Of a DNA stretch of 64,000 nucleotides, positions 44,260 through 64,000 are shown one piece after another. Source of the stretch: a virus; IMG/VR virus record IMGVR_UViG_3300042564_004498, positions 81,526-145,525 of that record; one strand, given 5' to 3'. Within the stretch, counting starts at the first letter, position 1; each line of letters opens with the position of its first letter. Made by a program: the position numbers and the translations under genes. The notes under the pieces were generated by a model. It was not told where the DNA came from, made no database searches, and saw nothing but the letters and a program-made list of their open reading frames with translations.

Positions 44260-44477
44260 TATTGTACTATTGTTGTTCCTACTATGACACAGTTATTTGA
44301 ATCGATAACTTTTAACATATACGAAGGTGATGTATTATATGGCGCTGGTATATCAAAAACATATGGTATTACAGATGTTGTTGAATAGTAAAAACATCCC
44401 GTACCATTTGCTTGACATACGTAGATATCATAAGGTGATTGACCTGTTATTGAACTAATTGTTACCTGTACCGCCAT
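44259..44477 (-). CDS. Small beta-rich protein paralogous to the N-terminus of 42973..44259
   Basis: VTISSITG..YDIYVC..C..P..F..P.P..Y..KVIDSNNC. Confidence 0.75.
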   Translation of the reverse strand: MAVQVTISSITGQSPYDIYVCQANGTGCFYYSTTSVIPYVFDIPAPYNTSPSYMLKVIDSNNCVIVGTTIVQ

Positions 44478-47400: not shown

Positions 47401-47812
47401 CAATAGTACAGGCGGTATAACAACTAATTGTACTATAATTAAATTTCTGAAGATAAATACATCCAGCCTCTGTTTGAGTTGGTGTATTTGTTGGCGTTTG
47501 AGTCGGAGTTTCCGTTGGTGATGGTGTAGGAGGAATACAAGGGACACCAGGTGCTTCTGTACTATTAATTGCACTAACAACTATATCACTATTATAATAA
47601 TAAAGGTATGGATACCCATATGTAAAATAATCGGTACAAGCTGACGCAGTATAAGGACCTGCAACCGTAAACGGTTCCGTAACTACATTACCATAACAAT
47701 CATAATAGTCAACAAATACAGTGTTATCCAAAAAAGGATACACATTACTGTTTGATGTTGCAGCAGCAATATCAATACTACTAATCGTTAATTCTAAATA
47801 AGTACAAGCCAT
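44477..47812 (-). CDS. Large Cys-rich Pro/Thr-repeat virion protein with C-terminal KIIC..LY..G domain
   Basis: 1111 aa; several TPT linkers. Confidence 0.75.
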   Translation of the reverse strand: MACTYLELTISSIDIAAATSNSNVYPFLDNTVFVDYYDCYGNVVTEPFTVAGPYTASACTDYFTYGYPYLYYYNSDIVVSAINSTEAPGVPCIPPTPSPTETPTQTPTNTPTQTEAGCIYLQKFNYSTISCYTACTIDNSVDVYSNYNPPIVGLSIFYDNNSPCTNVLPDGYYSSATGIAPYGCYTISGGTGLLIDYYPCTIGKCFTLEIPNGTGVYPSELTDGVDDLYVDYLNNFGDTILLNMVTSMPYNTTINPGYNTYYICTDSGGYPYFRYGPLGSTVTLTNAIIFAGDGCTADGDCEPPPPTPSPTPTNTATPTNTPTNTTTPTVTPTNTATPTVTPSEPYDIYLFEECSNPSNQFRFENVPGTLSVGDVYSITGPYFNGIATVITYSAIGTVYPSIGSVFIGQMACPTPTPTNTSTPTTTPTNTTTPTNTITPTNTATPGNTPTPSPTPFACEYSQFCFYTTLPSLSGYSGNYTAGSTYNGFPSYSGDGTSAGVIYYYSSITTTYWCLSNSLGGTCYLTGASPCKSDCPDISANSFTTGICPTPTPTAVNCSIFDFTAYFDCDWEPLPTPTPSIACDDVNFTFDTLGVTPTPTPTGDICNGVGISFSMSGYTPAVTPTVTLTPSVTLTRTVNASGQATFQMLDETFTCVSVKVLIDCQSGQEYYVTNSLVYLGVPVVIGMSMLVEIAGGLHCVTYISDNDNISSNANVNSILQIYAVCSNCNVYPTPTPTVTSSSTSTPTPTQTKTPTNTPTNTVTPTTTATIGTTPPPTPNQTLTQTPTQTTTPTVTPTPSTTPNYVYVYESCNPISPNTLKTQMIQDVKSPLVTTEGQCFNVYGTCWNYLGRFNTGYAAPSTVFPLTSSVDFFAGYTSNVFNDCNSCLTYTPPAPVQTYNVVGPYDGNSAACFAGNSAGAVLGFYTFTNGITIGSQLYNNPLFGSPTLVTTPGWYAASGSFLSFYGSFRIDNTGTIVEIGNSCVGIIVGPIGPIGGGTGSKIICDLLYRQGFLPKEIWEADEKFGRLMLKTNREGLFGYLTWAKPVVNFLTKHPQYSKYFYLITKPWSEHMAYMMGVLPEDNKLGKLIHYVGNKFSVMVYKLITSKKRRKKNK

Positions 47813-47977
47813 AATTTTTCCCTTACACTATAAATAACCTAATATTGGTTTTTATACAAAATAAAAGATAGAATGATTATAATTTTAATAAAGATGTTAT
47901 TTCTGTTATTTTAATTAAGACATTTAGACATAAATTAGCTCCCTCAATTGAAGTTATTAAAGAGAAACTATTGTAAA

Positions 47978-50828: not shown

Positions 50829-51671
50829 TTATTTAACCGCCTCACAAATTCCACCTTCAGAATAAGTTTGATACCCTCTTTGTTGTAACCAACTATAGAT
50901 TTCATCTTTTTTATCTTGAGGTAAATTATAATCCTCAAATATTATAAAATTTGGTAATGTAATTTTAGTTTCATCAATACCCATAATTAATTGAGCATCC
51001 AATCCTTCAACATCAAGGTGCAACCAATCTATTTGACCACCGCATTCATTTAGAATTAAGTCTGTAATACTAATTGAATCTCTTTTGGTTGAATTGATTT
51101 CTTCCGTTTCCCAATGTCTAATCACATTTTCAACAACAGTATTTGTATACCCCTCACCTCCTTCAAAAAATTCAACTTCACCACCATTTGGTGTAATTAA
51201 TTTTTGAATAGATTTAACTAATGATTTATTTTTGTAGTTATCTTTTAATTTTTGAAATTGTGTGTCGGACGCTTCAACTAATACCACATTACATTCTCTT
51301 TTTTGAACAATTGGTACCCATTCTCCAAACTCACCGTCGTGAGTCCCAATAACCAATCCTTTTGGAAACTTACCATTAGACAAAACAGATTTATTATACA
51401 TCCATAAAGATTTATAGAAATGATTTCCATGTTCCATAACATCCCATACTTTTGTGTAAATAATCCTATCTTTTGAATCCGTGATTTCAACATCAAACAT
51501 TTCAGTATTTGGGTAAGACCCAAACCAATTATCATTTAATTTGGTAGACCATTGTACCTCACCGCTAACATGTTTTTTTATTTTTAATTTTAAAGGTAAA
51601 TTTTGATTATATTTATTAATCTGACCAACATTAACCCTAATACCTTCTGAATTGTATGTTACTGTAATCAT
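50829..51671 (-). CDS. FkbM-like SAM-dependent methyltransferase with N-terminal beta domain
   Basis: VIGTHDG, VLVEA, IDWLHLDVEGLD, IIFE. Confidence 0.75.
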   Translation of the reverse strand: MITVTYNSEGIRVNVGQINKYNQNLPLKLKIKKHVSGEVQWSTKLNDNWFGSYPNTEMFDVEITDSKDRIIYTKVWDVMEHGNHFYKSLWMYNKSVLSNGKFPKGLVIGTHDGEFGEWVPIVQKRECNVVLVEASDTQFQKLKDNYKNKSLVKSIQKLITPNGGEVEFFEGGEGYTNTVVENVIRHWETEEINSTKRDSISITDLILNECGGQIDWLHLDVEGLDAQLIMGIDETKITLPNFIIFEDYNLPQDKKDEIYSWLQQRGYQTYSEGGICEAVK

Positions 51672-52216
51672 TTTTTATGTTTTTCTATAAAATGGTTTAT
51701 ATCTTGACTCCACAGTACCATGGCTTCTTCTTTGATTTTACTTTCTTCCCAATCCCACCAAGCAATATCTAGTAGGTTTTTAATTTGTTCTTCCTCAAAT
51801 CTATATTTTATATGTTTTGCAGGATTTCCACCAACAACAGAATAAGGTTCAACATCTTTGGTAACCAATGCACCCGCGGCAACAATTGCCCCATGTCCAA
51901 TTTTAATTCCCGACATTATTGTCGCTTTCGCACCAACCCAAACATCACTACCAACCGTAATATTACCTTTACAAGATGGATGGCCCATCTCCATGTGCAT
52001 ACTTGCAATCTCAGGAGTAACCGGTCCCCATAATTGAGAACTTGTTGTTATCCAATCAGGTCTATGATTTGCGTGTAAGAAGAAATTACAATCTCTTCCA
52101 ATGGAACAATATTTCCCAACATGAATTTCATACTCATTACTCCAAGAAATTATGTTGACATTCCTATCGTAATAAGTTCCTCTATCTGATTTCCATAAAT
52201 GTATATTCTCTATCAT
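51668..52216 (-). CDS. Hexapeptide-repeat O-acetyltransferase (CatB/Vat-like)
   Basis: VGKYCSIG, NH, VGSDVWVG..GIKIGHGAIVAAGALVTKDV..VGGNPAK..RF, WWDW. Confidence 0.85.
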   Translation of the reverse strand: MIENIHLWKSDRGTYYDRNVNIISWSNEYEIHVGKYCSIGRDCNFFLHANHRPDWITTSSQLWGPVTPEIASMHMEMGHPSCKGNITVGSDVWVGAKATIMSGIKIGHGAIVAAGALVTKDVEPYSVVGGNPAKHIKYRFEEEQIKNLLDIAWWDWEESKIKEEAMVLWSQDINHFIEKHKK

Positions 52217-53127
52217 GATTTTATAAATGTGTTTTCTCCAATATTATTTACATGATGGCTTAAATCAAATGTTTCACCATCATTTGTGATAATTAATTCA
52301 TCTGTATTTAAAAATGGTAATTCAATTTCATCCCATTCCCTAACTTCATAATTATTTTCAAACGAATCTGTTTTAACATTAAAATGTTTTATTCCACCAA
52401 AATCATAGAAAACAATTTTCATATTATCTGTCAGAGTTTTATGAATGAAACATTTAAATTTATTGGATGGAGAACAATTAAAAAAATCTTTATTTGATAG
52501 GAGATATATTAAATCTTCAATAGGTTGTTCTTCTATTACACCTGGTATTAATTTTACCGCTCTATGTAACCACGAAAAAGCGTCAAAATCACTTTCCACT
52601 AAATAACTTTCTTTGGTTATTAACATTTTAAATTTAATCAAATGTTCCCTATCCAACGAGATTAAATGTAAACCAATTGCCCAAGTCATACCATCTCTGT
52701 AAGAAGGGAAAAAACTATTTTTTTTATTGTCATTAAAAACTGATTCAACGTATGGTGTAATGTTTATATCATATATCATTGGGAAAAATATTTCGTAGTC
52801 CATTGATAAAGCAAAATCTGCCATTCTTTTAAATTGTAATAATCCCGCATATCCGTAATCCGGATATGTTGTTGTCATGGTGAGGTTAACTCCATTAAAA
52901 TTACCGGTCCACCACTGAAAATAAGACTTTTCAGGCCAATTTAACACCGGATTTTCTTTTGAAAATATTGCATAATCACAAAGTTCAATAACTTCATCAT
53001 TTAATTTTAAAGGACTTATTATCATTACATCAACACCTAATGATTTTATTTTTTTTATATTTTCAATTAATAAATCAAGTTTTTCTTGATTATCACAAAA
53101 AGTACTTATCAATGCGATTTTTTTCAT
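52213..53127 (-). CDS. Putative glycosyltransferase-like protein (paralog family, copy 1)
   Basis: N-terminal pattern and xYD motif shared with three nearby paralogs. Confidence 0.5.
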   Translation of the reverse strand: MKKIALISTFCDNQEKLDLLIENIKKIKSLGVDVMIISPLKLNDEVIELCDYAIFSKENPVLNWPEKSYFQWWTGNFNGVNLTMTTTYPDYGYAGLLQFKRMADFALSMDYEIFFPMIYDINITPYVESVFNDNKKNSFFPSYRDGMTWAIGLHLISLDREHLIKFKMLITKESYLVESDFDAFSWLHRAVKLIPGVIEEQPIEDLIYLLSNKDFFNCSPSNKFKCFIHKTLTDNMKIVFYDFGGIKHFNVKTDSFENNYEVREWDEIELPFLNTDELIITNDGETFDLSHHVNNIGENTFIKS

Positions 53128-53139
53128 TATTTTGTTTTT

Positions 53140-54138
53140 TTAAGTATAAATTGTATAATTTGTTTTTTTAAAAATTTCTCGTAAATTCTTATCAAATTTT
53201 ATTTCATTTTTCTTTTTTCCATTAACTAATGTGATTATTGAATCAATATTGTTAATATCACCAATTTCATCCATTTTCCATTCAAATTTATTAACTTCTT
53301 TAAATGTTATAATTTTTTCATTGTTAACAATAAAATTAACATTTATTGGTTCGTCATCTTTGTTGTTCCAAACTATTACAGAAACTTTATTTTCTTTTGT
53401 GTTATAAAATGGGACTGTCCAATAATTCATAGTTTCTTTAGAAGTATTATTAGATAATGCAAATTTTATATCTTTTAATTTAACATGGTCATAATTTTTA
53501 ATATGAATGGTATTACCATTCATATTCATAATGTCATTTGTAATTTTTTCATTAGTTTTTGATGTACTATTAAATAAAATTTCTAATAATTTTTCTTTAT
53601 CGTAAGATGTTAATAATTCATTTATTGAATCCACTTTGAATGACATGAAATTACCAATAGGCCATGCAATGTTTTCTTCATAACCCCTTTCTTCTTTTTG
53701 AATAACAACATTATCATATTCATCCAACAATTTTGAATTATCATATAATTCCGATAAATCATTCATAATTGTATCATACTCAATATAATGTACCTTTTTG
53801 TATTTAAACATTTTTGCAAATCCTAATCCTGCCGTAACCAATCTATAAACTGCCAAATATGTACTATTTTGACCGATATATGTTGATAGGATAGTCATTC
53901 CTTCAATTGGTGAAAACCAAGGTTGGTTTAGATATTTCAAATCAGTAATTAAATCATTATTCTTATCATAAAAAACATAATCAACTTTTTTAGTAATATA
54001 TGATGGTATTTCAGTATGACTACAAATTAAAATATCATATTCATTACGACATTTTTGTAGTGAATTAACACACTCATTTAATAGGGATTCTCTCTCGTCA
54101 TCGGGACAATGTGCACCAATTAAAATTAATTCTTTCAT
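53140..54138 (-). CDS. Putative glycosyltransferase-like protein (copy 2)
   Basis: KVDYVFYDKNN, YKKVHYIEYD; start reassigned to MKELIL. Confidence 0.55.
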   Translation of the reverse strand: MKELILIGAHCPDDERESLLNECVNSLQKCRNEYDILICSHTEIPSYITKKVDYVFYDKNNDLITDLKYLNQPWFSPIEGMTILSTYIGQNSTYLAVYRLVTAGLGFAKMFKYKKVHYIEYDTIMNDLSELYDNSKLLDEYDNVVIQKEERGYEENIAWPIGNFMSFKVDSINELLTSYDKEKLLEILFNSTSKTNEKITNDIMNMNGNTIHIKNYDHVKLKDIKFALSNNTSKETMNYWTVPFYNTKENKVSVIVWNNKDDEPINVNFIVNNEKIITFKEVNKFEWKMDEIGDINNIDSIITLVNGKKKNEIKFDKNLREIFKKTNYTIYT

Positions 54139-54139
54139 A

Positions 54140-54718
54140 TTATTTAATTTTTTTTGCAGGGCATCCAACATAAACACCACCCTCTTCAATGTGTTTAACA
54201 ACTGCGGAGTTCATACCAATCGTAGCTAAACTATGAACTGATAACTTTTCTCGTATTGATGAGTTACTACCCATATAAACTAAACTATAAATTGTAACAT
54301 TACCTGAAACAATTGCACCAGGCATTGCACTAAAATAATCTCCAATTCTACAATCGTGTCCAATGTGATTACCCCTATTTAATATTGAATGTTTCCCTAT
54401 TTTTATATTTGTTGTGAGTATTGAATAAGCCCCAACAAAACTTCCCTCCCCAATTTCAACATCTTCCATTATTAATGCGGTTGGATGTATAAAAGTGAAA
54501 AATTGAATCCCCTCGGGTAATCTTTGTGAAATGTCAAATCTATCTTTAGAATCTGAAATTGCAATCATTACAATGTGTTTGGTAGGGTCTAATTTAGACA
54601 AGGGTTGTGTATCATCATCAACATATTGTTCATCAACAAATCGGTCTAATTTACACCCCATTTGAGCCATAACTTCTCTCGCATGACCCCCATTTCCAAT
54701 TAATACTTTTATCATCAT
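54140..54718 (-). CDS. NeuD/PglD-type sugar acetyltransferase
   Basis: IGNGGHAREV, FIHPTA, IGHD, hexapeptide repeats, VGCPAK. Confidence 0.9.
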   Translation of the reverse strand: MMIKVLIGNGGHAREVMAQMGCKLDRFVDEQYVDDDTQPLSKLDPTKHIVMIAISDSKDRFDISQRLPEGIQFFTFIHPTALIMEDVEIGEGSFVGAYSILTTNIKIGKHSILNRGNHIGHDCRIGDYFSAMPGAIVSGNVTIYSLVYMGSNSSIREKLSVHSLATIGMNSAVVKHIEEGGVYVGCPAKKIK

Positions 54719-55329
54719 AATTTTTTAATTATTTTACGATAGTTTGAATATAATTCAGTAATATAATCCGCAAAAGTTAACATAAAATAGTCCACCGATT
54801 CTTTTGGTCTCAAAGTAGTTGTTCTATCTAATCCCCAAGTATAGTCATCAAAAATAAGAATACCCCCTTTTTTTAATACCCCCCAAGACATTATACTATC
54901 CATCATAACATATGGGGCGGTGTGATTACCATCAATAAAAATTATATCATACATTTTTTGTTCCGTAATTAAAGATGGTAAAATCTTATTAGAAAACCCT
55001 TGTCGTATAATAACTTTATCACTATCACCACTTTCAATAATATTATGTAAAAATATTTCTTTAGTTTTTCTCTCGGTTAACATCCATTCATTGTCTTCGT
55101 TATTATAGGAATTTAAACTATCATGGTCTTGACTATAATTCATCCAAGGGTCAACACAAGTAATGGTTGAATTTTTATTTTGTAAAATATTATCCAAAAA
55201 CCATATGGTTGATTTTCCTTCAAAAGAACCAACTTCAAGAATGTGTAATTCTTTTTTAACCCCTAATTCATTTAAAATTGATAGCCCGTCATCGTTAAAC
55301 CAATTTTCTGTAAAAGTATAATTTTTCAT
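54715..55329 (-). CDS. Class I SAM-dependent methyltransferase (Methyltransf_24-like)
   Basis: LEVGSFEGKS, CVDPW, IFIDGNH, GGILIFDDY. Confidence 0.85.
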   Translation of the reverse strand: MKNYTFTENWFNDDGLSILNELGVKKELHILEVGSFEGKSTIWFLDNILQNKNSTITCVDPWMNYSQDHDSLNSYNNEDNEWMLTERKTKEIFLHNIIESGDSDKVIIRQGFSNKILPSLITEQKMYDIIFIDGNHTAPYVMMDSIMSWGVLKKGGILIFDDYTWGLDRTTTLRPKESVDYFMLTFADYITELYSNYRKIIKKL

Positions 55330-55970
55330 TTTTTGTAAATTTCGTATTTTGATAAGTCAGGATATGGTAATTCTAAATCCTCATTATGTTTTTTAGTTCC
55401 GTCTAAATTATAAAATTGTGTCATCATTAATATCCCTCTTGCCGATAACTCAGGCATCATATAGAAATTCCATCCTAACATATCAAAGTTGTCATCATGA
55501 TATGAACATTCTCTTCTTCCGCTAAATCTTGCTCGTTTAAACCATAACATCGCTTGATAATCATCGGTTAAAATCGCGCCACCTTTACTTAATTTTAAAG
55601 TTTTATATGGGCCTGTGAATGAAACACACATATGTGATTTTGGGACATACATGTCAGCTGTGAATCTTAACGCTGAGTCCCAAACATTACTTGGCGATAG
55701 TTCGTAAGCCCCTTTAATCTTATCACCCTCAACCGGTGTAAAATTAACTTTTAACCCTGCGTGAATTATTTCACATGGTACCGATGGATATGTCTTTGAT
55801 GGACAATCTATGGTATCACCAGTTAATGTTTTCTTTATATTCTTTTCGTAGTATAACGCTAAGAATAATGCGTTACTCATATTATCTAACGCAATTGCGT
55901 GAGGAGCTCCTGTGTAATCGCATAATGCTTTCTCAAAATCTTCAGTTATTTTATGTACTCCTTGTGCCAT
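55326..55970 (-). CDS. DegT/DnrJ/EryC1/StrS-family sugar aminotransferase, short form
   Basis: FEKALCDYTG, TYPSVP..IIHAG, DSA, SFTGPYKTL..GGAILTDD, GWNFYM. Confidence 0.8.
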   Translation of the reverse strand: MAQGVHKITEDFEKALCDYTGAPHAIALDNMSNALFLALYYEKNIKKTLTGDTIDCPSKTYPSVPCEIIHAGLKVNFTPVEGDKIKGAYELSPSNVWDSALRFTADMYVPKSHMCVSFTGPYKTLKLSKGGAILTDDYQAMLWFKRARFSGRRECSYHDDNFDMLGWNFYMMPELSARGILMMTQFYNLDGTKKHNEDLELPYPDLSKYEIYKK

Positions 55971-55972
55971 TT

Positions 55973-56929
55973 TTAATTAATTGTATTCTTATTAATATAA
56001 ATATTTTTATCTGTTTTATTAAAATCTATTGAATTTCTTAGTGTATTGTTAACTAATATTATAATACTTTGAATACTGTCAATATCACCAATATCTCTTA
56101 AAATCCAATAACCAGGTTTTACCGTGTAATTAAGTATAATTGAATCATTAACAATTAGTTTAATTTCCATATTTTTTATTTCATCTTGACCCCAAGAAAA
56201 TAATACCATCTTTTTTGAATTATTATCATAAACAGGCACCACCCATTGGTATTCCGTAATATCACTATTTAATTGTATTTTTACTCCAATATTTTCTAAA
56301 AGTTTCATGTCTTTTGTTAAAACATTATCACTTTCATTTATTAACCCCATGTGATATTCTTCTGCGGCATTTGTCATATCACCATTAAAATAATTCATTA
56401 ATTTTTCTTTTGATGTATTAAACCATGAATCCGATATTTTCAATAAATTATATGAAACTGGCGCGGTTGGATACGAAAAATGTTTCCATTTATACCAAAT
56501 GATTGGGTGTATGTCTAAAAGTTTAGAATTGTCTTTAATTTCAATATCACTTTTAATTTCGCAATCGTACTCAAAAAAATGGACTTTAACATAATCTAAA
56601 TTTTTTGCGCTTTTTAATCCAAATAAAAGTAATCTTAAGCACGTAAACCCATGATTATATTTTTTACATTCAGTTGTCTTAACAGTAAAATCACTATTAG
56701 CGAAAACCATCTTATATTTTGACTTAATATCAGTTAATAACAAATTTTCCTTTTCATAAACAATGTAGTCCACTTTATCCGAAATATCTTGTGGAACAAA
56801 CGAATGTGTTGCAATCATAATATCAAATTCATCATTATTAATATCATTAACTAAAGTTCTTAATAATTCTTGTCTTTTGTTATCAGGAGAATAATTTAAT
56901 ATTAAAATCAATTCTTTATTTTTTTCCAT
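55973..56929 (-). CDS. Putative glycosyltransferase-like protein (copy 3)
   Basis: KVDYIVYEKEN, NHG, YVKVHFFEYD. Confidence 0.55.
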   Translation of the reverse strand: MEKNKELILILNYSPDNKRQELLRTLVNDINNDEFDIMIATHSFVPQDISDKVDYIVYEKENLLLTDIKSKYKMVFANSDFTVKTTECKKYNHGFTCLRLLLFGLKSAKNLDYVKVHFFEYDCEIKSDIEIKDNSKLLDIHPIIWYKWKHFSYPTAPVSYNLLKISDSWFNTSKEKLMNYFNGDMTNAAEEYHMGLINESDNVLTKDMKLLENIGVKIQLNSDITEYQWVVPVYDNNSKKMVLFSWGQDEIKNMEIKLIVNDSIILNYTVKPGYWILRDIGDIDSIQSIIILVNNTLRNSIDFNKTDKNIYINKNTIN

Positions 56930-56930
56930 G

Positions 56931-57941
56931 TTAATGAAAGTCAATTACGTTTATTATGTCCTTAAAATATTCTTCAAATAATAGTTCATCTCTATCATAT
57001 ACTAACATTTTTTCAACATTATTTGGTAAAGCGATATATGACCAAGCCCCATATGACCCAAATTCTTGAATTATTTCTTTTTCAGTACCATCATTAAATT
57101 TAACAAGTATTCTTCTAAAGTCAGGTTCTGATTTTACATTTTTACTATAAATCACAATCTCATCAGGATGGTCTTGTTTTAAATAAAATTTTGTTACACA
57201 TTCTTTATATTTTTTATCATCATAAACTCTAGTTTGTTTTGTATTCCAAAGAGTACTATCAAATTCAGTAAAAAATCCTTCTTTAATATAAATCTCATTA
57301 GGATTTAATTTTTTAACATTTTCATACATGAATCTTTCCATTATTAAAAAATCACGATTACCAAATTCTGATTCTAAAAAATTAATATAATCTTGTTCGC
57401 AAGTTATATTCGAAAAATTATCTAAGAAATAATCAATCTCACAGAAAAAATAATGTACTGACATTGATGAATGGTCCCCATGATTATCAACAAAAAAAAC
57501 ACCCTTTTTACCACTTAAAATACATTCATCATTTAATCCTTTAATTTTAATTTTAGTTTTTTCAGTTAATCTAGCGTCATATTCCATTTTATAAAAATGA
57601 GTATAACCCAACTCTTTAGCCATTCTAACCGAACGAAATAAACTAATTAAAACAGATAATCCATGGTTTTGAGTATGAGGAAAACAATTTGAAACTTTAA
57701 ACCAATCGTACTGTGTCCAATAGTTTACATAATCATATTTTGAATATTTTTCTTTGAATAATTGATTTTTTTTATCATAGAAAAAATAATCAACTTTATC
57801 TTGAACTTCTTTTGAAGTTGTTGTATTAGACATTAATAATAAATCGTCACCTATTGTTTTAACCGAATCAATAAAATTTATTAAGATACCTTCTTCTTGT
57901 TTGTCAGTAACAAATGCATCTAAAATTATTATTGGTCTCAT
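56931..57941 (-). CDS. Putative glycosyltransferase-like protein (copy 4)
   Basis: KVDYFFYDKKN, NHGLSV, YTHFYKMEYD. Confidence 0.55.
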   Translation of the reverse strand: MRPIIILDAFVTDKQEEGILINFIDSVKTIGDDLLLMSNTTTSKEVQDKVDYFFYDKKNQLFKEKYSKYDYVNYWTQYDWFKVSNCFPHTQNHGLSVLISLFRSVRMAKELGYTHFYKMEYDARLTEKTKIKIKGLNDECILSGKKGVFFVDNHGDHSSMSVHYFFCEIDYFLDNFSNITCEQDYINFLESEFGNRDFLIMERFMYENVKKLNPNEIYIKEGFFTEFDSTLWNTKQTRVYDDKKYKECVTKFYLKQDHPDEIVIYSKNVKSEPDFRRILVKFNDGTEKEIIQEFGSYGAWSYIALPNNVEKMLVYDRDELLFEEYFKDIINVIDFH

Positions 57942-58009
57942 TATTTTTTAGTTAGTATTTGAAATATAGACAATATCCCCTATATTTCAACTAAAATAAT
58001 CACATAATA

Positions 58010-60283
58010 ATGAAGAAAATATTTGCACATGGTTCTTACATTGGGAACACAGGTTATAATCAACATACAAGAGACTTTTTTAGACATTTATCAAAACATG
58101 CCCAGATAAAAGTTAGAAATTTTACTGTAGGTAGTTCTTGGGATGGGATAAGTCCTGAACCACATAATAACGAGCCGTATTTTAACGATACAGATAGAAA
58201 ATTACTGTACGAACAAATCCTTTGGAATACAGATAAAACAAGAGGTAATCATAAAATTTATGAAGACCCATCAAAAGATTTTTTCCCTGATGTTAACATT
58301 GTATTATGTGAAACAAACCACCATTTATTTTACGATGAATATTATGGACCAAAAATTGCATATAATGTTTGGGAATCCACATTACAACCTGAAGGTTATT
58401 TCAACAAATTAAAAGAATTTGATGAATTATGGGTACCATCAAAATGGCAAAGAGATTGTACTATCTCTCAAGGTTATGACCCAAGTAAAATTAAAGTTGT
58501 TCCTGAAGGTGTTGATGTTAATACTTTCTTTCCTGAAGATACTTCACATGAATTAACCTCAGATGGAAGATTTAAATTCTTTTTAGCAGGTAGATGGGAT
58601 TATAGAAAATCAATTAAAGAAATTATTGAGACATTTCTTAAAACTTTTGATAAAGATGAACCAGTTGATTTAATTATTTCTGTTGATAACCCATTTTCAG
58701 GTGATGGTATGAAAACTACGGAAGAAAGATTAGAACATTACGGATTAAACGATGACAGAATTAAAATATTACATTTCCCTCCAAGAGAAGAATATATTAA
58801 AATATTAAAATCTTGTGACGCGTTTGTATCATGTGCAAGGTCTGAAGGATGGAACCTACCACTTATTGAAGCGATGGCTTGTGGTACACCATCTATCTAT
58901 TCAAACTGTTCAGGTCAATTAGAATTTGCTGAAGGTAAAGGTTTACCCGTTAAAATTGTGGGTGAAAAACCAGTTGATGCCAGTACCTATAGTCATTTTA
59001 ACGATTCTATTGGAAACTACTACGAACCTGACTTTAATGATTTAGGTAAACAGATGTGGAATGTAGTTACTAATCACCAACACTATAAACAAATAGCATT
59101 AGAAGAATCTGAAATTATTAGAAAAGAATTTAATTGGGAACATGTTGCAGAAATTGGGATAAAAACAATTAACGAATTTTTGGAAAAAACTCTTAAAGTT
59201 GAGGACACTAATAAAACAATAATTACTTACTTTGATGGACCAAGAGTTGAAATTAAAGGTAATCACAATAATAAATACTTTGTTGAATTTATTGATGGTG
59301 AAGGTAAAGTTAGATTTTCAGACACCATAACCAACAATATGTGGACTTCTTGTGGTATAAAATATTATGTTCCATGGACAATTAAAATAAATGGTAAAGT
59401 TGTTGAAAATTTTAGTTTAGACAATAAAAAAGTTTTAATCAGATTTGAATCCAAATCAATTGGTGATACTATTGCTTGGTCACCATATGCAGTTGAGTTA
59501 ATGAAACAAAGAAATTGTAAGGTAGTATTATCAACTTTTCATAATGAATGGTTCAAAGGTTTAGATTCATATAAAAATATTGAATTTATTAATCCAGGAC
59601 ATTCTTCAGATTGTGACGTTATCTATAAATTAGGATGGTTTAAAGATGATAAAACAGGATGGAAAAGATTTGATATGCACCCAAATCAAGTAAACTTAAT
59701 TCCCCTACAAAAAACAGCAACAGATATTTTAGGTTTAGATTTCAAAGAAATTAATCATGGTGTTAATTTCAAATTATCTAAAAGACCAATAAAAAACAAA
59801 TATGTTGTATTTGGTCCACAATCAACTGCCGGTTGTAAAGAATGGGTTTTAGAAAATTGGATAACATTATCTAAAATGTTAAAAGAAATTGGTTATGAAA
59901 TTATGATATTATCCCTTAATGATTATAAAATAGATGGAGTACATGTTAACACAACTAAAGATTGGAATGAAGTTATGAATTGTTTATATCATTCAGAATT
60001 TTTTGTAGGTTTAAGTTCGGGACTATCTTGGGTTAATTGGTCATTAAATAAAAAAACAGTTATGATATCAGGTTTTAGTGAAGATAGTCATGAATGTCAA
60101 ACCAATGTGACACGAGTATCAAATAATGTTTGTATTAAATGTTGGAATGACCCTGTATTAGTATTTAATCCTGGTGATTGGGATTGGTGTCCTGTTTATA
60201 AAAACACCGAAAGACAACATATTTGTCAAAAATCAATAACGCCTCTACAAGTATTTAACTCATTACCAATAATTAAAGATTAA
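58010..60283 (+). CDS. Fusion of a GT4-family glycosyltransferase and an AAH/TibC-like protein O-heptosyltransferase domain
   Basis: N-half VPEGVD, SEGWNLPLIEAMACGTP; C-half SKSIGDTIAW, STAGCKEW, FVGLSSGLSW..VMISGFS and four-Cys CIKCWN..WCP..C. Confidence 0.85.
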   Translation: MKKIFAHGSYIGNTGYNQHTRDFFRHLSKHAQIKVRNFTVGSSWDGISPEPHNNEPYFNDTDRKLLYEQILWNTDKTRGNHKIYEDPSKDFFPDVNIVLCETNHHLFYDEYYGPKIAYNVWESTLQPEGYFNKLKEFDELWVPSKWQRDCTISQGYDPSKIKVVPEGVDVNTFFPEDTSHELTSDGRFKFFLAGRWDYRKSIKEIIETFLKTFDKDEPVDLIISVDNPFSGDGMKTTEERLEHYGLNDDRIKILHFPPREEYIKILKSCDAFVSCARSEGWNLPLIEAMACGTPSIYSNCSGQLEFAEGKGLPVKIVGEKPVDASTYSHFNDSIGNYYEPDFNDLGKQMWNVVTNHQHYKQIALEESEIIRKEFNWEHVAEIGIKTINEFLEKTLKVEDTNKTIITYFDGPRVEIKGNHNNKYFVEFIDGEGKVRFSDTITNNMWTSCGIKYYVPWTIKINGKVVENFSLDNKKVLIRFESKSIGDTIAWSPYAVELMKQRNCKVVLSTFHNEWFKGLDSYKNIEFINPGHSSDCDVIYKLGWFKDDKTGWKRFDMHPNQVNLIPLQKTATDILGLDFKEINHGVNFKLSKRPIKNKYVVFGPQSTAGCKEWVLENWITLSKMLKEIGYEIMILSLNDYKIDGVHVNTTKDWNEVMNCLYHSEFFVGLSSGLSWVNWSLNKKTVMISGFSEDSHECQTNVTRVSNNVCIKCWNDPVLVFNPGDWDWCPVYKNTERQHICQKSITPLQVFNSLPIIKD

Positions 60284-60312
60284 AAAAAAAGGGACTTAGA
60301 GTCCCTTTTTTT
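60283..60312. terminator. Bidirectional terminator between converging genes
   Basis: A-run GGGACT-TAG-AGTCCC T-run. Confidence 0.8.
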
Positions 60313-63300
60313 ATATTATTGCTTTATATTCTAATAATACTTTTTCAACATCTTTACGTTCTGCATATATTAAGTAGAACACATTAATATTATCACAAGT
60401 ACTATCAATGAATACTTTATTATCTTTAACTTCAACTACATAGTTTTCACAAGGATATCCTATTGATGTTAAGTTTACCGTAAAACTATCTTCGTGGACT
60501 AATCCAATCCAATAATCAGGTAATTCAATTACTTTATCAGTTGCTTTACCTCTAAAATAAACTCCATGTTCTGGTCCCTCTAATACACCGTATCTTAATC
60601 TATACCCCTCTTTTGTTGGGTGGGGAATGTCAAATGATTTTGACGCCGCTGTTAATGCTCCTGTTATTGCAGTATCACCAGTAACTCTTAAAGTACTTCC
60701 ATCAAACCTTAAATTAACCTCACCATTAATAACACCTGATGTTCCAGTTGCAGTTATTACGTAATTGTCAACATTATTTAAAATAGTTGCAGAACCTGAT
60801 GTTCCTGACGAACCACTTGAACCGCTAGTTCCTGACGAACCTGATGAACCTGATGTACCACTTGAACCTGAAGAACCTGATGTACCACTTGAACCAGATG
60901 TTCCTGATGAACCAGATGTTCCTGAAGAACCGCTTGAACCGCTAGTTCCTGATGAACCTGATGTACCGCTTGAACCTGATTTACCTGAAGAACCACTTGA
61001 ACCTGAAGTTCCTGAAGAACCACTTAAACCTGATGTACCGCTTGAACCTGAACTTCCGCTAGTTCCTGACGAACCACTTGAACCGCTAGTTCCTGACGAA
61101 CCACTTGAACCGCTAGTTCCTGAAGAACCTGATGTACCGCTTGAACCTGATTTACCTGAAGAACCACTTGAACCTGAAGTTCCTGATGAACCAGATGTTC
61201 CTGAAGAACCACTTGAACCTGAACTTCCGCTAGTTCCTGAAGAACCGCTCGAACCTGATGTTCCTGATGAACCTGATGTACCGCTTGAACCAGATGTTCC
61301 TGATGAACCGCTTGAACCTGAAGTTCCTGAAGAACCACTTGAACCGCTAGTTCCTGAAGAACCTGATGTACCGCTTGAACCTGATTTACCTGAAGAACCA
61401 CTTGAACCTGAAGTTCCTGAAGAACCACTTGAACCTGAAGTTCCTGAAGAACCGCTTGAACCTGAAGTTCCTGATGAACCGCTTGAACCGCTAGTTCCTG
61501 ATGAACCTGATGTACCACTTGAACCAGATGTTCCTGATGAACCAGATGTTCCTGAAGAACCGCTTGAACCTGATGTACCGCTTGAACCTGAACTTCCGCT
61601 AGTTCCTGACGAACCACTTGAACCTGATGTACCGCTTGAACCTGATGTACCACTTGAACCAGATGTTCCTGATGAACCAGATGTTCCTGAAGAACCGCTT
61701 GAACCGCTAGTTCCTGATGAACCTGATGTACCACTTGAACCAGATGTTCCTGATGAACCAGATGTTCCTGAAGAACCGCTTGAACCGCTAGTTCCTGAAG
61801 AACCTGATGTTCCTGATGAACCTGATGTACCGCTTGAACCAGATGTTCCTGAAGAACCGCTTGAACCGCTAGTTCCTGATGAACCTGATGTACCGCTTGA
61901 ACCTGATTTACCTGAAGAACCGCTTGAACCTGAAGTTCCTGATGAACCACTTGAACCTGAAGTTCCTGAAGAACCACTTGAACCTGAAGTTCCTGAAGAA
62001 CCACTTGAACCTGAAGTTCCTGAAGAACCACTTGAACCTGATGTACCGCTTGAACCTGATGTACCGCTTGAACCAGATGTTCCTGATGAACCAGATGTTC
62101 CTGAAGAACCGCTTGAACCTGAAGTTCCTGAAGAACCACTTGAACCGCTAGTTCCTGAAGAACCTGATGTACCACTTGAACCAGATGTTCCTGATGAACC
62201 AGATGTTCCTGAAGAACCACTTGAACCTGATGTACCGCTTGAACCAGATGTTCCTGATGAACCGCTTGAACCTGAAGAACCGCTTGAACCTGAAGTTCCT
62301 GAAGAACCACTTGAACCTGATGTACCGCTTGAACCTGAACTTCCGCTAGTTCCTGACGAACCACTTGAACCGCTAGTTCCTGAAGAACCTGATGTACCAC
62401 TTGAACCAGATGTTCCTGATGAACCAGATGTTCCTGAAGAACCGCTTGAACCGCTAGTTCCTGAAGAACCTGAACTTCCGCTAGTTCCTGATGAACCTGA
62501 TGCACCGCTTGAGCCAGAGGTTCCTGAAGAACCTGATGAACCGCTTGAACCTGAACTACCACTAGTTCCAGAAGAACCATCTGTACCGTCAATACCTGAA
62601 CAACCTGTTACTCCACTAGTTCCTGATGAACCGCTTGAACCTGATGTTCCTGAAGAACCGCTTGAACCGCTAGTTCCTGATGAACCACTTGAACCAGATG
62701 TTCCTGAAGAACCTGATGTACCTGAACTTCCGCTAGTTCCTGAAGAACCGCTTGAACCGCTAGTTCCTGATGAACCTGAACTTCCGCTAGTTCCTGAAGA
62801 ACCACTTGAACCAGATGTTCCTGAAGAACCTGAACTTCCGCTAGTTCCTGAAGAACCGCTAGTTCCTGAAGAACCTGATGTACCTGAACTTCCGCTAGTT
62901 CCTGACGAACCACTTGAACCGCTAGTTCCTGAAGAACCACTTGAACCGCTAGTTCCTGAAGAACCACTTGAACCTGATGTTCCTGAAGAACCTGATGTAC
63001 CTGAACTTCCGCTAGTTCCTGAAGAACCGCTTGAACCGCTAGTTCCTGAAGAACCACTTGAACCAGATGTTCCTGAAGAACCTGAACTTCCGCTAGTTCC
63101 TGAAGAACCACTTGAACCGCTAGTTCCTGAAGAACCACTTGAACCGCTAGTTCCTGAAGAACCACTTGAACCGCTAGTTCCTGAAGAACCACTTGAACCT
63201 GATGTTCCTGAAGAACCACTTGAACCGCTAGTTCCTGAAGAACCGCTTGAACCGCTAGTTCCTGAAGAACCGCTTGAACCGCTAGTTCCTGATGAACCTG

Positions 63301-64000
63301 AACTTCCGCTAGTTCCTGAAGAACCACTTGAACCGCTAGTTCCTGAAGAACCTGATGTACCGCTTGAACCAGATGTTCCTGATGAACCTGAACTTCCACT
63401 AGTTCCTGAAGAACCGCTTGAACCGCTAGTTCCTGAAGAACCTGATGTACCGCTTGAACCAGATGTTCCTGAAGAACCTGAACTTCCGCTAGTTCCTGAA
63501 GAACCTGATGTACCGCTTGAACCAGATGTTCCTGAAGAACCGCTTGAACCGCTAGTTCCTGAAGAACCGCTTGAACCGCTAGTTCCTGAAGAACCGCTTG
63601 AACCGCTAGTTCCTGAAGAACCGCTTGAACCGCTAGTTCCTGATGAACCGCTTGAACCTGATGTTCCTGAAGAACCGCTTGAACCGCTAGTTCCTGATGA
63701 ACCACTTGAACCAGATGTTCCTGAAGAACCTGATGTACCTGAACTTCCGCTAGTTCCTGAAGAACCGCTTGAACCGCTAGTTCCTGATGAACCTGAACTT
63801 CCGCTAGTTCCTGAAGAACCACTTGAACCAGATGTTCCTGAAGAACCTGAACTTCCGCTAGTTCCTGAAGAACCGCTAGTTCCTGAAGAACCTGATGTAC
63901 CTGAACTTCCGCTAGTTCCTGACGAACCACTTGAACCGCTAGTTCCTGAAGAACCACTTGAACCGCTAGTTCCTGAAGAACCACTTGAACCTGATGTTCC
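60311..64000 (-). CDS. Giant Gly-Ser-Thr repeat fibre protein (5' end outside window, at least 1229 aa) with C-terminal chaperone-like domain
   Basis: True frame reads ..GTSGSSGSSGTS..GSATILNNVDNYVITATG..KSFDIPHPTKEGYRLRYGVLEGPEHGVYFRG..IELPDYWIGLV..AERKDVEKVLLEYKAII*; frame spot-checked at both ends and at interruptions, no stop found. Confidence 0.88.
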   Translation of the reverse strand, partial: GTSGSSGSSGTSGSSGSSGTSGSSGSSGTSGSSGTSGSSGTSGSSGTSGSSGSSGTSGSSGSSGTSGSSGSSGTSGSSGSSGTSGSSGTSGSSGTSGSSGSSGTSGSSGSSGTSGSSGSSGTSGSSGSSGTSGSSGSSGTSGSSGSSGTSGSSGSSGTSGSSGTSGSSGTSGSSGSSGTSGSSGTSGSSGTSGSSGSSGTSGSSGSSGTSGSSGTSGSSGTSGSSGSSGTSGSSGSSGTSGSSGSSGTSGSSGSSGTSGSSGSSGTSGSSGSSGTSGSSGSSGTSGSSGSSGTSGSSGSSGTSGSSGSSGTSGSSGSSGTSGSSGSSGTSGSSGTSGSSGTSGSSGSSGTSGSSGSSGTSGSSGSSGTSGSSGTSGSSGTSGSSGTSGSSGSSGTSGSSGSSGTSGSSGSSGTSGSSGSSGTSGSSGTSGSSGTSGSSGSSGTSGSSGSSGTSGSSGSSGTSGVTGCSGIDGTDGSSGTSGSSGSSGSSGSSGTSGSSGASGSSGTSGSSGSSGTSGSSGSSGTSGSSGTSGSSGTSGSSGTSGSSGSSGTSGSSGSSGTSGSSGSSGTSGSSGSSGSSGSSGTSGSSGTSGSSGSSGTSGSSGTSGSSGTSGSSGTSGSSGSSGTSGSSGSSGTSGSSGTSGSSGTSGSSGTSGSSGSSGTSGSSGSSGTSGSSGSSGTSGSSGSSGTSGSSGSSGKSGSSGTSGSSGTSGSSGSSGTSGSSGTSGSSGTSGSSGTSGSSGSSGTSGSSGTSGSSGTSGSSGTSGSSGSSGTSGSSGTSGSSGTSGSSGTSGSSGSSGTSGSSGSSGTSGSSGSSGTSGSSGTSGSSGTSGSSGTSGSSGSSGTSGSSGSSGTSGSSGSSGTSGSSGSSGKSGSSGTSGSSGTSGSSGSSGTSGSSGSSGTSGSSGTSGSSGTSGSSGSSGTSGSSGSSGSSGTSGSSGTSGSSGSSGKSGSSGTSGSSGTSGSSGSSGTSGSSGSSGTSGSSGSSGTSGLSGSSGTSGSSGSSGKSGSSGTSGSSGTSGSSGSSGTSGSSGTSGSSGTSGSSGSSGTSGSSGSSGTSGSSGSSGTSGSATILNNVDNYVITATGTSGVINGEVNLRFDGSTLRVTGDTAITGALTAASKSFDIPHPTKEGYRLRYGVLEGPEHGVYFRGKATDKVIELPDYWIGLVHEDSFTVNLTSIGYPCENYVVEVKDNKVFIDSTCDNINVFYLIYAERKDVEKVLLEYKAII
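60794..64000. repeat. 9-bp unit tandem repeat (~356 units) encoding GSS/GTS
   Basis: Plus-strand units such as tgaagaacc, gcttgaacc, gctagttcc, agatgttcc. Confidence 0.95.

Follow-up and report, generated by a model that had tools for sequence, protein, structure and literature searches.

Enzymes of the BAHT family, to which TibC and Aah of Escherichia coli belong, are protein-specific, and the TibC dodecamer requires a thumb, a beta-hairpin tipped by the hydrophobic pair FV. In the serine-rich-repeat system, hundreds of Ser/Thr residues are O-glycosylated sequentially in the cytoplasm by a GT-B (GT4) initiator and then by several GT-A-type extenders, without a lipid carrier. The rhamnose-anthrose glycan of BclA ends in anthrose, which is an O-methylated, N-acylated 4-amino-4,6-dideoxyhexose. 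In TibC, D110 is catalytic, K230 binds the sugar, and C339, C342, C358, and C370 form the iron finger (PMC4358343). Serine-rich-repeat adhesins of streptococci and staphylococci are glycosylated by GtfA/GtfB plus extending glycosyltransferases (cited in PMC8498110). In mycobacteriophages, phage-encoded glycosyltransferases O-glycosylate the phage's own structural proteins, giving phage-encoded virion glycosylation a precedent (Freeman et al. 2023, as cited in PMC12619734).

The window analyzed here, a stretch of 64,000 nucleotides, comes from an uncultured freshwater giant phage (virus record IMGVR_UViG_3300042564_004498). It contains ten soluble sugar enzymes at 50829-60283, adjoined by a long G/S/T fiber gene: FkbM and class-I methyltransferases, CatB/Vat-like and VioB/NeuD-like acetyltransferases, a mini-DegT, four paralogues with a predicted GT-A fold, and a GT4-TibC/Aah fusion. 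All ten sugar-handling genes claimed by the initial annotation are present at the coordinates given there; nine are encoded on the minus strand (50829-57941), each overlapping or abutting the next, and the plus strand carries the fusion (58010-60283). We propose that these genes may well form an island with which the phage O-glycosylates proteins in the cytoplasm, and that the main acceptor would be its own collagen-like (G-S/T-S)n fiber, a reading that we regard as reasonably likely. The features, with their coordinates in the window, are:

40341..50515, minus strand: four multidomain PT-linker proteins of 856, 428, 1111, and 845 aa, possible extra acceptors whose membership is uncertain
50829..51671, minus strand: FkbM-family methyltransferase (PF05050, E=1e-9)
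51668..52216, minus strand: CatB/Vat-class hexapeptide acyltransferase (best NCBIfam match CatB at 145 bits, far under the 350-bit cut-off, hence a class-level placement only)
52213..53127, minus strand: predicted GT-A-fold paralogue 1, 304 aa
53140..54201, minus strand: predicted GT-A-fold paralogue 2, start uncertain (TTG 54201 or ATG 54135)
54140..54718, minus strand: NeuD/PglB/VioB-type N-acetyltransferase for NDP-4-amino-4,6-dideoxyhexoses (TIGR03570, PDB VioB)
54715..55329, minus strand: class-I SAM methyltransferase, Methyltransf_24 / O-methyltransferase-like (Methyltransf_24, E=1e-19)
55326..55970, minus strand: mini-DegT, 214 aa (PF01041, PLP lysine candidate K123)
55973..56944, minus strand: predicted GT-A-fold paralogue 3, 323 aa
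56931..57941, minus strand: predicted GT-A-fold paralogue 4, 336 aa, the modelled member
57959..57990, no strand: perfect 10-bp inverted repeat TGAAATATAG-N10-CTATATTTCA
58010..60283, plus strand: GT4-TibC/Aah fusion, 757 aa (profile and PDB matches, residue alignment)
60284..60312, no strand: bidirectional intrinsic-terminator-like hairpin (13-bp stem, flanking A-run and T-run)
60311..60787, minus strand: C-terminal fiber tip domain (phrog_17490, E=3.6e-39, motif FDIPHPTKEG)
60788..64000, minus strand: collagen-like shaft of the fiber, the proposed glycan acceptor (triplet count, PF01391)

The fusion protein combines a GT4 glycosyltransferase domain (approximately aa 97-381) with a TibC/Aah-type (BAHT) protein O-glycosyltransferase domain (aa 406-751). 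TIGR04414 gave 205.4-207.6 bits in two profile searches, above its curated equivalog cut-off of 200, and residues 28-380 of TibC (PDB 4rap) were matched with E=4.8e-33. D486, within a GD motif, aligns to TibC D110 and K610 to TibC K230, and C708/C711/C727/C739 align gap-free to the iron-finger cysteines C339/C342/C358/C370; D486, K610, and the four cysteines do not vary among 17 diverse homologues from phages. By sequence, the C-terminal half is a bona fide BAHT-family domain, in agreement with the earlier description of this half as TibC-like. In a single pairwise alignment, the thumb of the fusion is 3 residues shorter than that of TibC and its tip reads GV instead of the hydrophobic FV; the fusion may therefore assemble and handle its substrate differently from TibC, which counts against the fiber reading. 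The protein specificity of BAHT enzymes also speaks against a role of the glycosyltransferases in the hypermodification of phage DNA, an explanation that we consider highly improbable. No thymidylate-synthase-like hydroxymethylase was found in the contig, and for Flavobacterium phage immuto, which carries the mini-DegT/NeuD pair, the nucleosides found in the DNA were dA, dC, dT, and fdPreQ1, none reported to bear a sugar (bioRxiv 10.1101/2023.04.13.536721). The point in favor of this explanation is that DNA is a known target of GT-B and GT-A enzymes from phages (PMC12619734).

None of the four GT-like paralogues has a match in Pfam or NCBIfam. The AF2 model of paralogue 4 (pLDDT 83.4) consists of a GT-A domain (aa 1-238) followed by a C-terminal beta-sandwich, and it matches BoGT6a, WrtF, TarP, mannosylglycerate synthase, and LH3 with Z=12.5-13.4 and rmsd of 2.9-3.8 A over 160-195 residues. 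From this one modelled member, the four paralogues are predicted to be GT-A-fold enzymes, which bears out their initial assignment as GT-like. An invariant Y-D pair (Y121-D122 of paralogue 4), which is not a canonical DxD, follows strand 115-120. The GT-A nucleotide-sugar-binding fold is also found in nucleotidyltransferases. Elsewhere, members of the family are fused to FkbM, to GT4, and once to GT4 plus GT9 in one protein; GT-A paralogues are present beside the fusion in most fusion loci, across distant clades.

Among the tailoring enzymes, the NeuD/VioB-like protein scores 160.0 bits with TIGR03570 (subfamily cut-off 160.8) and matches PDB VioB 7txp over its full length (E=1.7e-28). The DegT aminotransferase of the initial annotation does belong to PF01041 (49.9 bits, gathering cut-off 19.8), but it is a reduced rather than a full-length form: its 214 aa, compared with the two-domain norm of ~360-390 aa, match just two stretches of the profile (26-97 and 167-245); positions 98-166 and 246-360 have no counterpart, and the C-terminal domain is lacking. 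Approximately 40% of the normal enzyme is thus missing, which counts against the fiber-glycan reading. Across the more than 7,500 clusters of this family, the short form is usual; the candidate PLP lysine K123 is invariant and aligns to K186 of perosamine synthase, and the fold compares with those of sugar aminotransferases at TM(query) 0.5-0.57.

DegT, NeuD-type, methyl- and acetyltransferase, GT4, and GT-A proteins belong to the usual repertoire of O-antigen and capsule loci, and a similar cluster in immuto has been annotated in cell-wall terms. The genes could accordingly form an auxiliary metabolic island that remodels host surface glycans (LPS core/O-antigen, capsule, S-layer, or host glycoproteins) for superinfection exclusion or progeny release; the promoter-like site of the operon, which is host-type and not the putative late motif, fits this explanation and counts against the fiber reading. 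However, all ten enzymes are soluble, with TM segments in 0/10, and the 145-kb contig (48% of the genome) contains no initiating phosphoglycosyltransferase, flippase, polymerase, ligase, or polytopic membrane protein, and neither Wzy_C/PglL nor an autotransporter (no match to PF03797). Moreover, the signature enzyme falls in the protein-specific BAHT family, the LPS heptosyltransferase I profile reaching only 24.5 bits on the fusion compared with ~205 for TIGR04414, and the association with collagen-like fiber genes described below is strong and specific. We consider the remodeling of host glycans rather unlikely.

The operon and the fusion gene diverge across a 68-bp gap that contains the inverted repeat at 57959..57990. 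A TTGAAA-16-TATATT promoter-like site coincides with this repeat on both strands, so that one symmetric divergent promoter-like palindrome is common to operon and fusion. Because of their adjacency, this shared element, and the domain fusions found elsewhere, the nine-gene operon putatively feeds the same glycan as the fusion. A division of roles, with the fusion modifying the fiber and the operon making a modified NDP-sugar for another purpose, would be consistent with the variable operon content among fusion-keeping relatives (NeuD plus mini-DegT are present in some loci only), with the size of the mini-DegT family (more than 7,500 clusters vs ~2,500 fusion proteins), and with the presence of the mini-DegT/NeuD pair in immuto, which is without TibC. 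The shared palindrome, together with GT-A paralogues that accompany the fusion across distant clades and are joined to GT4, GT4 plus GT9, or FkbM in other proteins, makes such a division quite improbable.

The fiber gene (60311-64000, minus strand) is convergent with the fusion, and the hairpin fills the gap between them; the contig end cuts the gene, and its N-terminus is missing. Its shaft comprises at least 356 G-X-Y triplets without interruption (the gene being truncated by the contig end), with 216 GSS and 129 GTS among the 356 and Ser at the Y position in 352. The approximately two hydroxyl residues per triplet claimed initially correspond to a count of 1.97 over these 356 triplets, which contain no Pro and 6 charged residues. 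PF01391 (collagen) matches the final repeats with E=1.6e-9, and the Ser codons of the gene come from both families (406 TCN, 163 AGY). Typical prokaryotic collagens have ~19-31% Pro at X and ~32-48% Thr at Y (PMC8968730), and the shaft departs from their Pro-, charge-, and Thr-rich composition in its lack of Pro and in a Y position that is nearly always Ser. The length of the fiber is estimated at ~300 nm or more. The tip domain is common to a fiber of immuto, T4-like cyanophage proteins, and the second fiber of this phage, and the immuto counterpart is annotated as a tail-fiber-like protein within the structural module.

The co-occurrence of TibC-like and GSS-repeat genes, suggested earlier as a check, proved strongly positive in phage loci, complete relatives, and bacterial genomes. 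Counting a locus as linked when 12 or more consecutive G-X-Y triplets lay no farther than 10 kb away, we found linkage at 25/80 fusion loci vs 0/80 control loci of the same lineage, and at 11/19 of the fusion loci with full flanks. Among 29 related records chosen through an unrelated gene, TibC and (G-S/T-S)n were both present in 15 and both absent in 11, with TibC alone in 3 and the repeat alone in 0 (Fisher p=1e-5), co-occurrence counts that are not phylogenetically independent and in fragments partly reflect physical linkage; in all 3 records with TibC alone, its gene lies at most 6 kb from a contig end. In bacterial genomes, including complete Methylobacter and Methylomicrobium chromosomes, a G-T/S-S collagen-like ORF was present at 17/67 TibC-homologue loci, often 110-260 bp away. 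Fibers near the fusion vary in orientation, and their tip domains differ between clades. We found no published description of the TibC-collagen pairing in the literature. Counting against the fiber as acceptor are the many fusion loci without a collagen gene within 10 kb and the Pro-rich, Ser/Thr-poor collagen neighbors at L031, L038, and L077. It also counts against it that the characterized BAHT acceptors are beta-helical autotransporter passengers, with collagen-like repeats not among them; the neighbor of the fusion here is the collagen-like fiber and not an autotransporter passenger.

The enzymes might instead glycosylate other phage or virion proteins, such as the PT-linker proteins, capsid, sheath, or a Cys-rich STIGGG fiber, the collagen fiber being a mere neighbor in a variable fiber/accessory island. 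PT linkers are classic O-glycosylation sites, and the proteins that bear them are encoded directly upstream (40.3-50.5 kb). In each, globular domains are joined by 3-7 TPTxTP linkers of just 9-23 aa; T makes up 14-26% and P 7-11% of the four proteins, and one contains a LamG domain. What remains of their original description as Pro/Thr mucin-like virion proteins is the short linkers: as multidomain proteins with globular parts, they are not mucin-like throughout, and they are at most candidate virion proteins, with no homologues in isolated phages and only weak PHROG matches. In another phage group, the fusion gene is flanked by the major-head and tail-sheath genes, and the 10 kb around it hold no collagen gene. 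This head-sheath position also speaks for the fiber reading, as does the cultured Microcystis phage Mel-JY01, in which the fusion gene comes after a Ser-rich 'structural protein'. The second fiber, flanked by Hld genes, is Cys-rich with ~15-residue S-T-I-G-G-G repeats that are more like autotransporter passenger repeats. However, homologues of the PT proteins occur at only part of the fusion loci, and those of the STIGGG fiber turn up in a complete genome that has no TibC (G004) but not in four that do have it, whereas (G-S/T-S)n and TibC are concordant in 7/7 complete genomes and small G-T/S-S collagen-like genes directly adjoin bacterial TibC homologues. A different acceptor is, in our view, unlikely. 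The collagen linkage and the lack of membrane or lipid-carrier glycosylation machinery in the contig make O-glycosylation of the fiber the best reading; the original own-fiber proposal is partly supported, by the BAHT domain, the GT-A folds, and the TibC-GSS co-occurrence, with the PT-linker proteins as possible extra acceptors at most.

If the fiber is the acceptor, as gene linkage suggests, the TibC-type domain would place the first sugar directly on the Ser/Thr hydroxyls of the repeat, with a putative donor that is probably ADP-heptose. The contig encodes HldD-, HldA-, and HldC-like enzymes (best NCBIfam E=1.5e-53, 1.2e-38, and 5.8e-30, all under cut-offs), but their genes lie ~100 kb from the island, at the STIGGG fiber, which counts against this donor, and ADP-heptose genes do not track TibC, with the Hld kinase in 1/7 complete relatives vs TibC in 5/7. 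The glycan would then be lengthened by the GT4 domain of the fusion together with as many as four GT-A enzymes. Judging from family chemistry, the mini-DegT and the VioB/NeuD-like acetyltransferase could take an NDP-4-keto-6-deoxyhexose supplied by the host and make from it a 4-amino-4,6-dideoxyhexose bearing an N-acetyl group, which the two methyltransferases and the CatB-like acyltransferase would decorate; neither a 4,6-dehydratase nor a nucleotidyltransferase was found in the contig, a point against the fiber-glycan reading. Every step would be soluble and nucleotide-sugar-driven, without a lipid carrier, and would take place inside the infected cell, before the fiber is assembled or while it is.

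The likely pay-off, on which we can only speculate, would be a proline-free triple helix that is hydrated or stabilized, or a glycan coat on a fiber of this length; stability, adhesion, and shielding as benefits of a virion glycan are equally speculative. A likeness for a glycan-dependent triple helix is the galactosyl-threonine of Riftia, a tube worm, in its cuticle collagen. It is conceivable, if doubtful, that the glycan is needed for structure, and that a dense cover of O-linked sugars, on nearly every Ser/Thr, allows the proline-free, uncharged (G-S/T-S)n to fold as a stable collagen triple helix. In that case, a BAHT-type enzyme with a collagen-like partner would constitute a widespread two-component 'glyco-collagen' system that would serve aquatic phages by the thousands, and some bacteria as well, in building fibers of 0.3 to ~1 micrometer.

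The closest described counterparts are the TibC-TibA and Aah-AIDA-I pairs of E. coli (BAHT; TIGR04414; PDB 4RAP/4RB4; PMC4358343), whose catalytic domain is homologous to that of the fusion. In E. coli, a soluble cytoplasmic enzyme hyperglycosylates Ser in a long repetitive protein encoded next door, as the fusion would in the phage, and genes of the ADP-heptose pathway lie in the phage contig that carries the fusion. In contrast to the beta-helical autotransporter passenger of E. coli, the presumed phage acceptor is a collagen-like G-S/T-S fiber. Moreover, the phage enzyme, with its altered thumb hairpin, is fused to GT4 and accompanied by four GT-A and tailoring enzymes, so an oligosaccharide would be expected rather than the single heptose of the E. 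coli type. BclA, the exosporium glycoprotein of Bacillus anthracis/cereus (PMC8968730), resembles the proposed fiber as an O-glycosylated collagen-like G-X-Y filament with hydroxyl residues, and its anthrose is the type of sugar expected from an aminotransferase, a VioB/NeuD-type acyltransferase, and methyltransferases. It differs in its GPT-rich repeats (Pro at X, Thr at Y, compared with no Pro and Ser at Y in the phage fiber), in its other glycosyltransferases with no BAHT enzyme, and in being a bacterial spore protein and not a virion component. With the serine-rich-repeat system, the proposed island shares GT4 and several predicted GT-A enzymes that would act without a lipid carrier, whereas the BAHT initiating family and the putative collagen-like acceptor are peculiar to the phage, which has no accessory Sec export. 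In mycobacteriophages, it is the C-terminal ends of the capsid and tail-tube subunits that carry the glycans, the enzymes belong to other families, the hosts are Gram-positive actinobacteria, and the modification was shown by mass spectrometry, whereas the present system is deduced from genes. Finally, Mimivirus and other giant viruses (PMC9614988) decorate their surface fibrils by means of a complete virus-encoded toolkit that includes amino-sugar biosynthesis, and Mimivirus likewise encodes collagen-like proteins; these viruses infect eukaryotes, and their enzymes are unrelated and include no BAHT domain, whereas the phage described here has a bacterial host and a tail-fiber-like putative acceptor.

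The source contig (145,525 bp, GC content of 31.6%) has a CheckV completeness of 48%, and the window forms its final 64 kb. Among the relatives recovered through an unrelated gene encoding an SbcC-like nuclease, some records of 308-326 kb are complete according to CheckV, which indicates that the phage is an uncultured jumbo phage of ~320 kb. Replication genes (primase, exonuclease, SbcC-like) occupy the window to the left of ~38 kb, while the features considered here lie at its right end:

50829-57941, minus strand: operon-like run of nine sugar-enzyme genes, which overlap or abut
55326-55970, minus strand: gene within this run encoding a 214-aa reduced PLP-fold protein of the DegT family (mini-DegT)
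57959-57990, both strands: perfect palindrome TGAAATATAG-N10-CTATATTTCA in the 68-bp divergent gap
58010-60283, plus strand: GT4-TibC fusion gene, divergent from the operon (68-bp gap)
60311-64000, minus strand: collagen-like fiber gene, convergent with the fusion gene (27-bp gap)

On the basis of comparative genomics, we propose that this phage-encoded island probably O-glycosylates the fiber. The fusion gene encodes a 757-aa protein composed of a GT4 domain (approximately aa 97-381) and a TibC/Aah domain (aa 406-751). The relationship of its C-terminal half to TibC, suspected in the initial annotation, was borne out: the domain scores 205.4 and 207.6 bits against the curated TIGR04414 equivalog (cut-off of 200) and aligns with TibC residues 28-380 (E=4.8e-33). 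The residues defined as essential in TibC are D110 (catalytic), K230 (sugar-binding), and C339/C342/C358/C370 (iron-coordinating) (PMC4358343); their counterparts in the alignment are D486, K610, and C708/C711/C727/C739, none of which varies across 17 diverse phage homologs. The thumb hairpin forming the TibC dodecamer is shortened in the phage protein, with the FV tip changed to GV. Judged by its sequence, the enzyme is a member of the BAHT family, with a presumed acceptor and setting unlike those of every characterized member. The fusion family comprises more than 2,500 sequence clusters from freshwater and marine metagenomes and occurs in jumbo and T4-like myoviruses. In the related virus records G006-G026, the domain is found in ORFs of 397, 424, 701, 773, 1033, 1234, 1456, and 1921 aa, which suggests that the domain has been shuffled very actively into multi-enzyme proteins.

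The initial count of ten sugar-handling genes proved correct, based on family searches and, for four unassigned paralogs, on a GT-A fold model. By family searches, the operon encodes two methyltransferases (one FkbM, one Methyltransf_24), a member of the DegT family, an N-acetyltransferase of the NeuD/PglB/VioB type (160.0 bits for a cut-off of 160.8; match to VioB 7txp, E=1.7e-28), and a CatB/Vat-class hexapeptide acyltransferase, whose 145 bits against a 350-bit cut-off allow assignment at the class level only. The four paralogs share ~20% mutual identity and have no Pfam or NCBIfam match. The model of one of them (29 homologs, pLDDT 83.4) shows a GT-A fold in residues 1-238, followed by a beta-sandwich, and the fold matches many GT-A glycosyltransferases (Z 12.5-13.4 over 160-195 residues, rmsd 2.9-3.8 A). 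This family comprises ~1,700 clusters at 50% identity.

The mini-DegT retains the PLP-lysine region (K123) and lacks ~40% of a normal enzyme; in its model (pLDDT 78), the fold resembles a sugar-aminotransferase core (TM 0.5-0.57). More than 7,500 clusters (90% identity) belong to its family, nearly all of exactly 214 aa and 81-93% identical, whereas its neighbors in the same loci share only 50-80% identity. The protein is a cut-down version of the PLP fold that evolves under exceptionally strong constraint. Its presence alongside the VioB-like acetyltransferase suggests the formation of an N-acetyl-4-amino-4,6-dideoxyhexose from host NDP-4-keto-6-deoxyhexose. The contig, representing 48% of the genome, encodes no dehydratase, second epimerase, or RmlA-type nucleotidyltransferase, and relatives carry dehydratases elsewhere in their genomes.

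None of the ten sugar enzymes contains TM-like segments. In the contig (48% of the genome), no polytopic membrane protein was found except a 244-aa ORF with four segments, and neither a Wzy_C/PglL-type enzyme nor an autotransporter was detected. This fits a route in which soluble enzymes would add sugars directly and one after another to an acceptor in the cytoplasm, here the collagen-like fiber, and not a lipid-linked surface-polysaccharide pathway. Remodeling of the host surface as the role of the island is disfavored by the enzyme family, by the absent membrane machinery, and by the specific tie to the fiber described below. The enzyme family likewise speaks against glycosylation of phage DNA, which we also disfavor. 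Flavobacterium phage immuto, which has the mini-DegT/NeuD pair in common with our phage (73% nucleotide identity), contains dA, dC, dT, and fdPreQ1 in its DNA, with no sugar-bearing nucleoside reported (bioRxiv 10.1101/2023.04.13.536721). No ThyA-like enzyme is encoded in the contig (48% of the genome).

The presumed acceptor is rich in hydroxyl groups. The partial fiber ORF contains 356 uninterrupted G-X-Y triplets (216 GSS, 129 GTS, and 11 others), which average 1.97 hydroxyl residues each. It lacks proline, has six charged residues, and carries Ser at position Y in 352 of the 356 triplets, a composition different from that of typical prokaryotic collagens, in which position X is taken by Pro and position Y by Thr (PMC8968730). 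Ser codons are drawn from both families (TCN 406, AGY 163), and the DNA repeat is only ~70% regular, which indicates that conservation acts on the protein sequence and not on the DNA repeat. The C-terminal domain (159 residues) matches phrog_17490 (E=3.6e-39), shares 57% identity with the tip of the immuto 'tail fiber-like protein' located within the structural module of that phage, and also matches proteins from many T4-like cyanophages; a PDB sequence search with this domain returned no relatives. This homology anchors the minus-strand frame as the real fiber frame. An antisense frame (60765-63998, plus strand, 1,078 aa, P-D/E-E-P-L-type repeats) and two further long repeat-derived frames over the fiber gene were rejected as by-products of the triplet repeat. 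The contig terminates within the repeat, and the ends of other loci (L003, L006, L023, L024) likewise lie inside (G-S/T-S)n. Assemblies of this lineage therefore break at the repeat and consistently lose part of the fiber gene; in relatives, the fiber reaches at least 3,327 aa (locus L005).

Co-occurrence of TibC with GSS-repeat genes, which the initial annotation had put forward as a check of fiber glycosylation, was observed in phage loci, related records, and bacterial genomes. Among 80 IMG/VR loci with a fusion homolog (37-80% identity), a collagen-like run of at least 12 G-X-Y triplets within 10 kb was present at 25 (11 of the 19 with full flanks); no such run occurred at any of 80 control loci from the same lineage, centered on its SbcC-like gene. 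The neighboring fibers lie up- or downstream on either strand and end in at least three different C-terminal domains; their repeats are mostly of the G-S/T-S type and Pro-rich in some clades. In 29 related records chosen regardless of TibC and searched for the pattern (GGN WSN WSN)x6, the TibC-by-repeat 2x2 table was 15/3/0/11 (Fisher p=1e-5). The reversed control pattern had zero matches in every record. In all three discordant records TibC lies less than 6 kb from a contig end, and each of the seven complete genomes has either both features (five) or neither (two). In bacterial genomes, a G-T/S-S collagen-like ORF occurs at 17 of 67 loci with a TibC homolog, often 110-260 bp away. Methylobacter and Methylomicrobium loci (L184, L190, L198, L207) contain G-T-S collagen-like genes of 230-340 aa, 130-260 bp from the TibC homolog. 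Complete Methylobacter and Methylomicrobium chromosomes are among the 17 loci, and the methanotroph gene pair may represent a bacterial or prophage version of the enzyme-substrate pair proposed for the phage. The loci and records counted at these levels are not independent of each other phylogenetically, and joint absence in fragments partly reflects missing sequence. At every level examined, the data nevertheless point in the same direction and are consistent with a TibC-collagen association.

The palindrome in the divergent gap is unique (0 expected by chance) and coincides with mirror-image TTGAAA-16-TATATT promoter-like sites, one for each divergent transcription unit, operon and fusion; it could serve as an operator as well. 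A sigma-70 scan was overall at chance (74 sites found, 76 expected), and only this symmetric site was noted. A bidirectional terminator-like hairpin occupies the fusion-fiber gap. The T4-type late box TATAAATA occurs 11 times in the window, against an expectation of 12.6, and for lack of enrichment it was discarded as an argument on timing. On the minus strand, TATTTAT (40320, 47830, 50546) is found 6, 18, and 31 nt ahead of the starts of three genes, encoding a 737-aa protein and two of the Pro/Thr-linker proteins described below (1111 and 845 aa), respectively; it is lacking ahead of the operon and of the fusion, and a further copy (55997) precedes mini-DegT by 27 nt. An operon acting independently of the fusion appears unlikely, given the common divergent palindrome and the GT-A paralogs, which accompany the fusion in most loci, distant clades included, and whose family elsewhere forms fusions with FkbM methyltransferases, with GT4, or, in one 1,289-aa protein, with GT4 plus GT9.

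Another phage protein might be the main acceptor, which we regard as unlikely. The four proteins at 40.3-50.5 kb, initially described as mucin-like, consist of globular domains joined by 3-7 TPTxTP linkers per protein, each linker 9-23 residues long; a LamG domain occurs in one of the four and a weak SprB repeat in one. They may be extra acceptors. Neither they nor their 737-aa neighbor have a homolog among 50,697 isolated-phage records. A second fiber is encoded elsewhere in the contig:

contig 36629-40420: Cys-rich second fiber, 1,264 aa, with S-T-I-G-G-G repeats and the tip domain of the collagen-like fiber
contig 36629-42400 (10627-17088 in locus L085): second fiber with flanking genes, ~100 kb upstream of the operon/fusion island

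Its flanks contain HldD/HldA/HldC-like, HAD phosphatase, cupin, sulfotransferase, radical-SAM, and FkbM genes, and the region may be a separate second fiber-decoration island. The HldD-, HldA-, and HldC-like proteins match TIGR02197/02198/02199 best (E=1.5e-53, 1.2e-38, and 5.8e-30; all under the cut-offs), which makes ADP-heptose a plausible donor in this phage, with HAD and cupin proteins as possible stand-ins for GmhB and GmhA. Judging from the relatives, ADP-heptose genes are not general among TibC carriers: the kinase is present in only one of seven complete relatives, and phage Hld genes were rejected as obligatory TibC partners. The STIGGG fiber was also rejected as a partner, as its homologs do not track TibC in complete genomes.

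Among the 50,697 isolated-phage records, a TibC domain was found only in Microcystis phage Mel-JY01 and three huge-phage metagenome records. Mel-JY01 provides a cultured carrier; the domain forms the C-terminus of a 1,226-aa GT4-containing protein encoded directly after a Ser-rich 'structural protein'. In another phage group (L054 9626-16389; L021 9986-14528; L074 8908-13121), GT4-TibC belongs to the structural module, where it is flanked by the genes for the major head protein and adaptor on one side and by that for the tail sheath on the other; GT4 and TibC are separate adjacent genes in some phages, and there is no collagen-like gene within 10 kb. Our literature search found no description of BAHT enzymes in phages or of glycosylated phage collagen fibers, and nothing relevant on Mel-JY01.

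If fiber glycosylation is correct, a very large set of phages from aquatic habitats would glycosylate their own receptor-binding or whisker fibers, and in lakes and oceans, phage-made glycans would be part of how phages and hosts recognize each other chemically. An enzyme family whose known role has so far been confined to glycosylating the adhesins of enteric pathogens would serve phages, extending the range of BAHT acceptors to collagen-like repeats and their setting to virions, and the GT-A and mini-DegT families would gain a function.

Virus-associated glycosylation has precedents in giant virus fibrils (PMC9614988) and in mycobacteriophages, whose virions are reported to be glycosylated by phage enzymes (cited in PMC12619734). 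With soluble enzymes acting directly and in sequence on an acceptor in the cytoplasm, the proposed phage system would resemble TibC-TibA, Aah, and the glycosylation of serine-rich-repeat adhesins. It would also work like the glycosylation of the collagen-like protein BclA, on which anthrose is made by an enzyme set resembling the aminotransferase, VioB-like acetyltransferase, and two methyltransferases found here.
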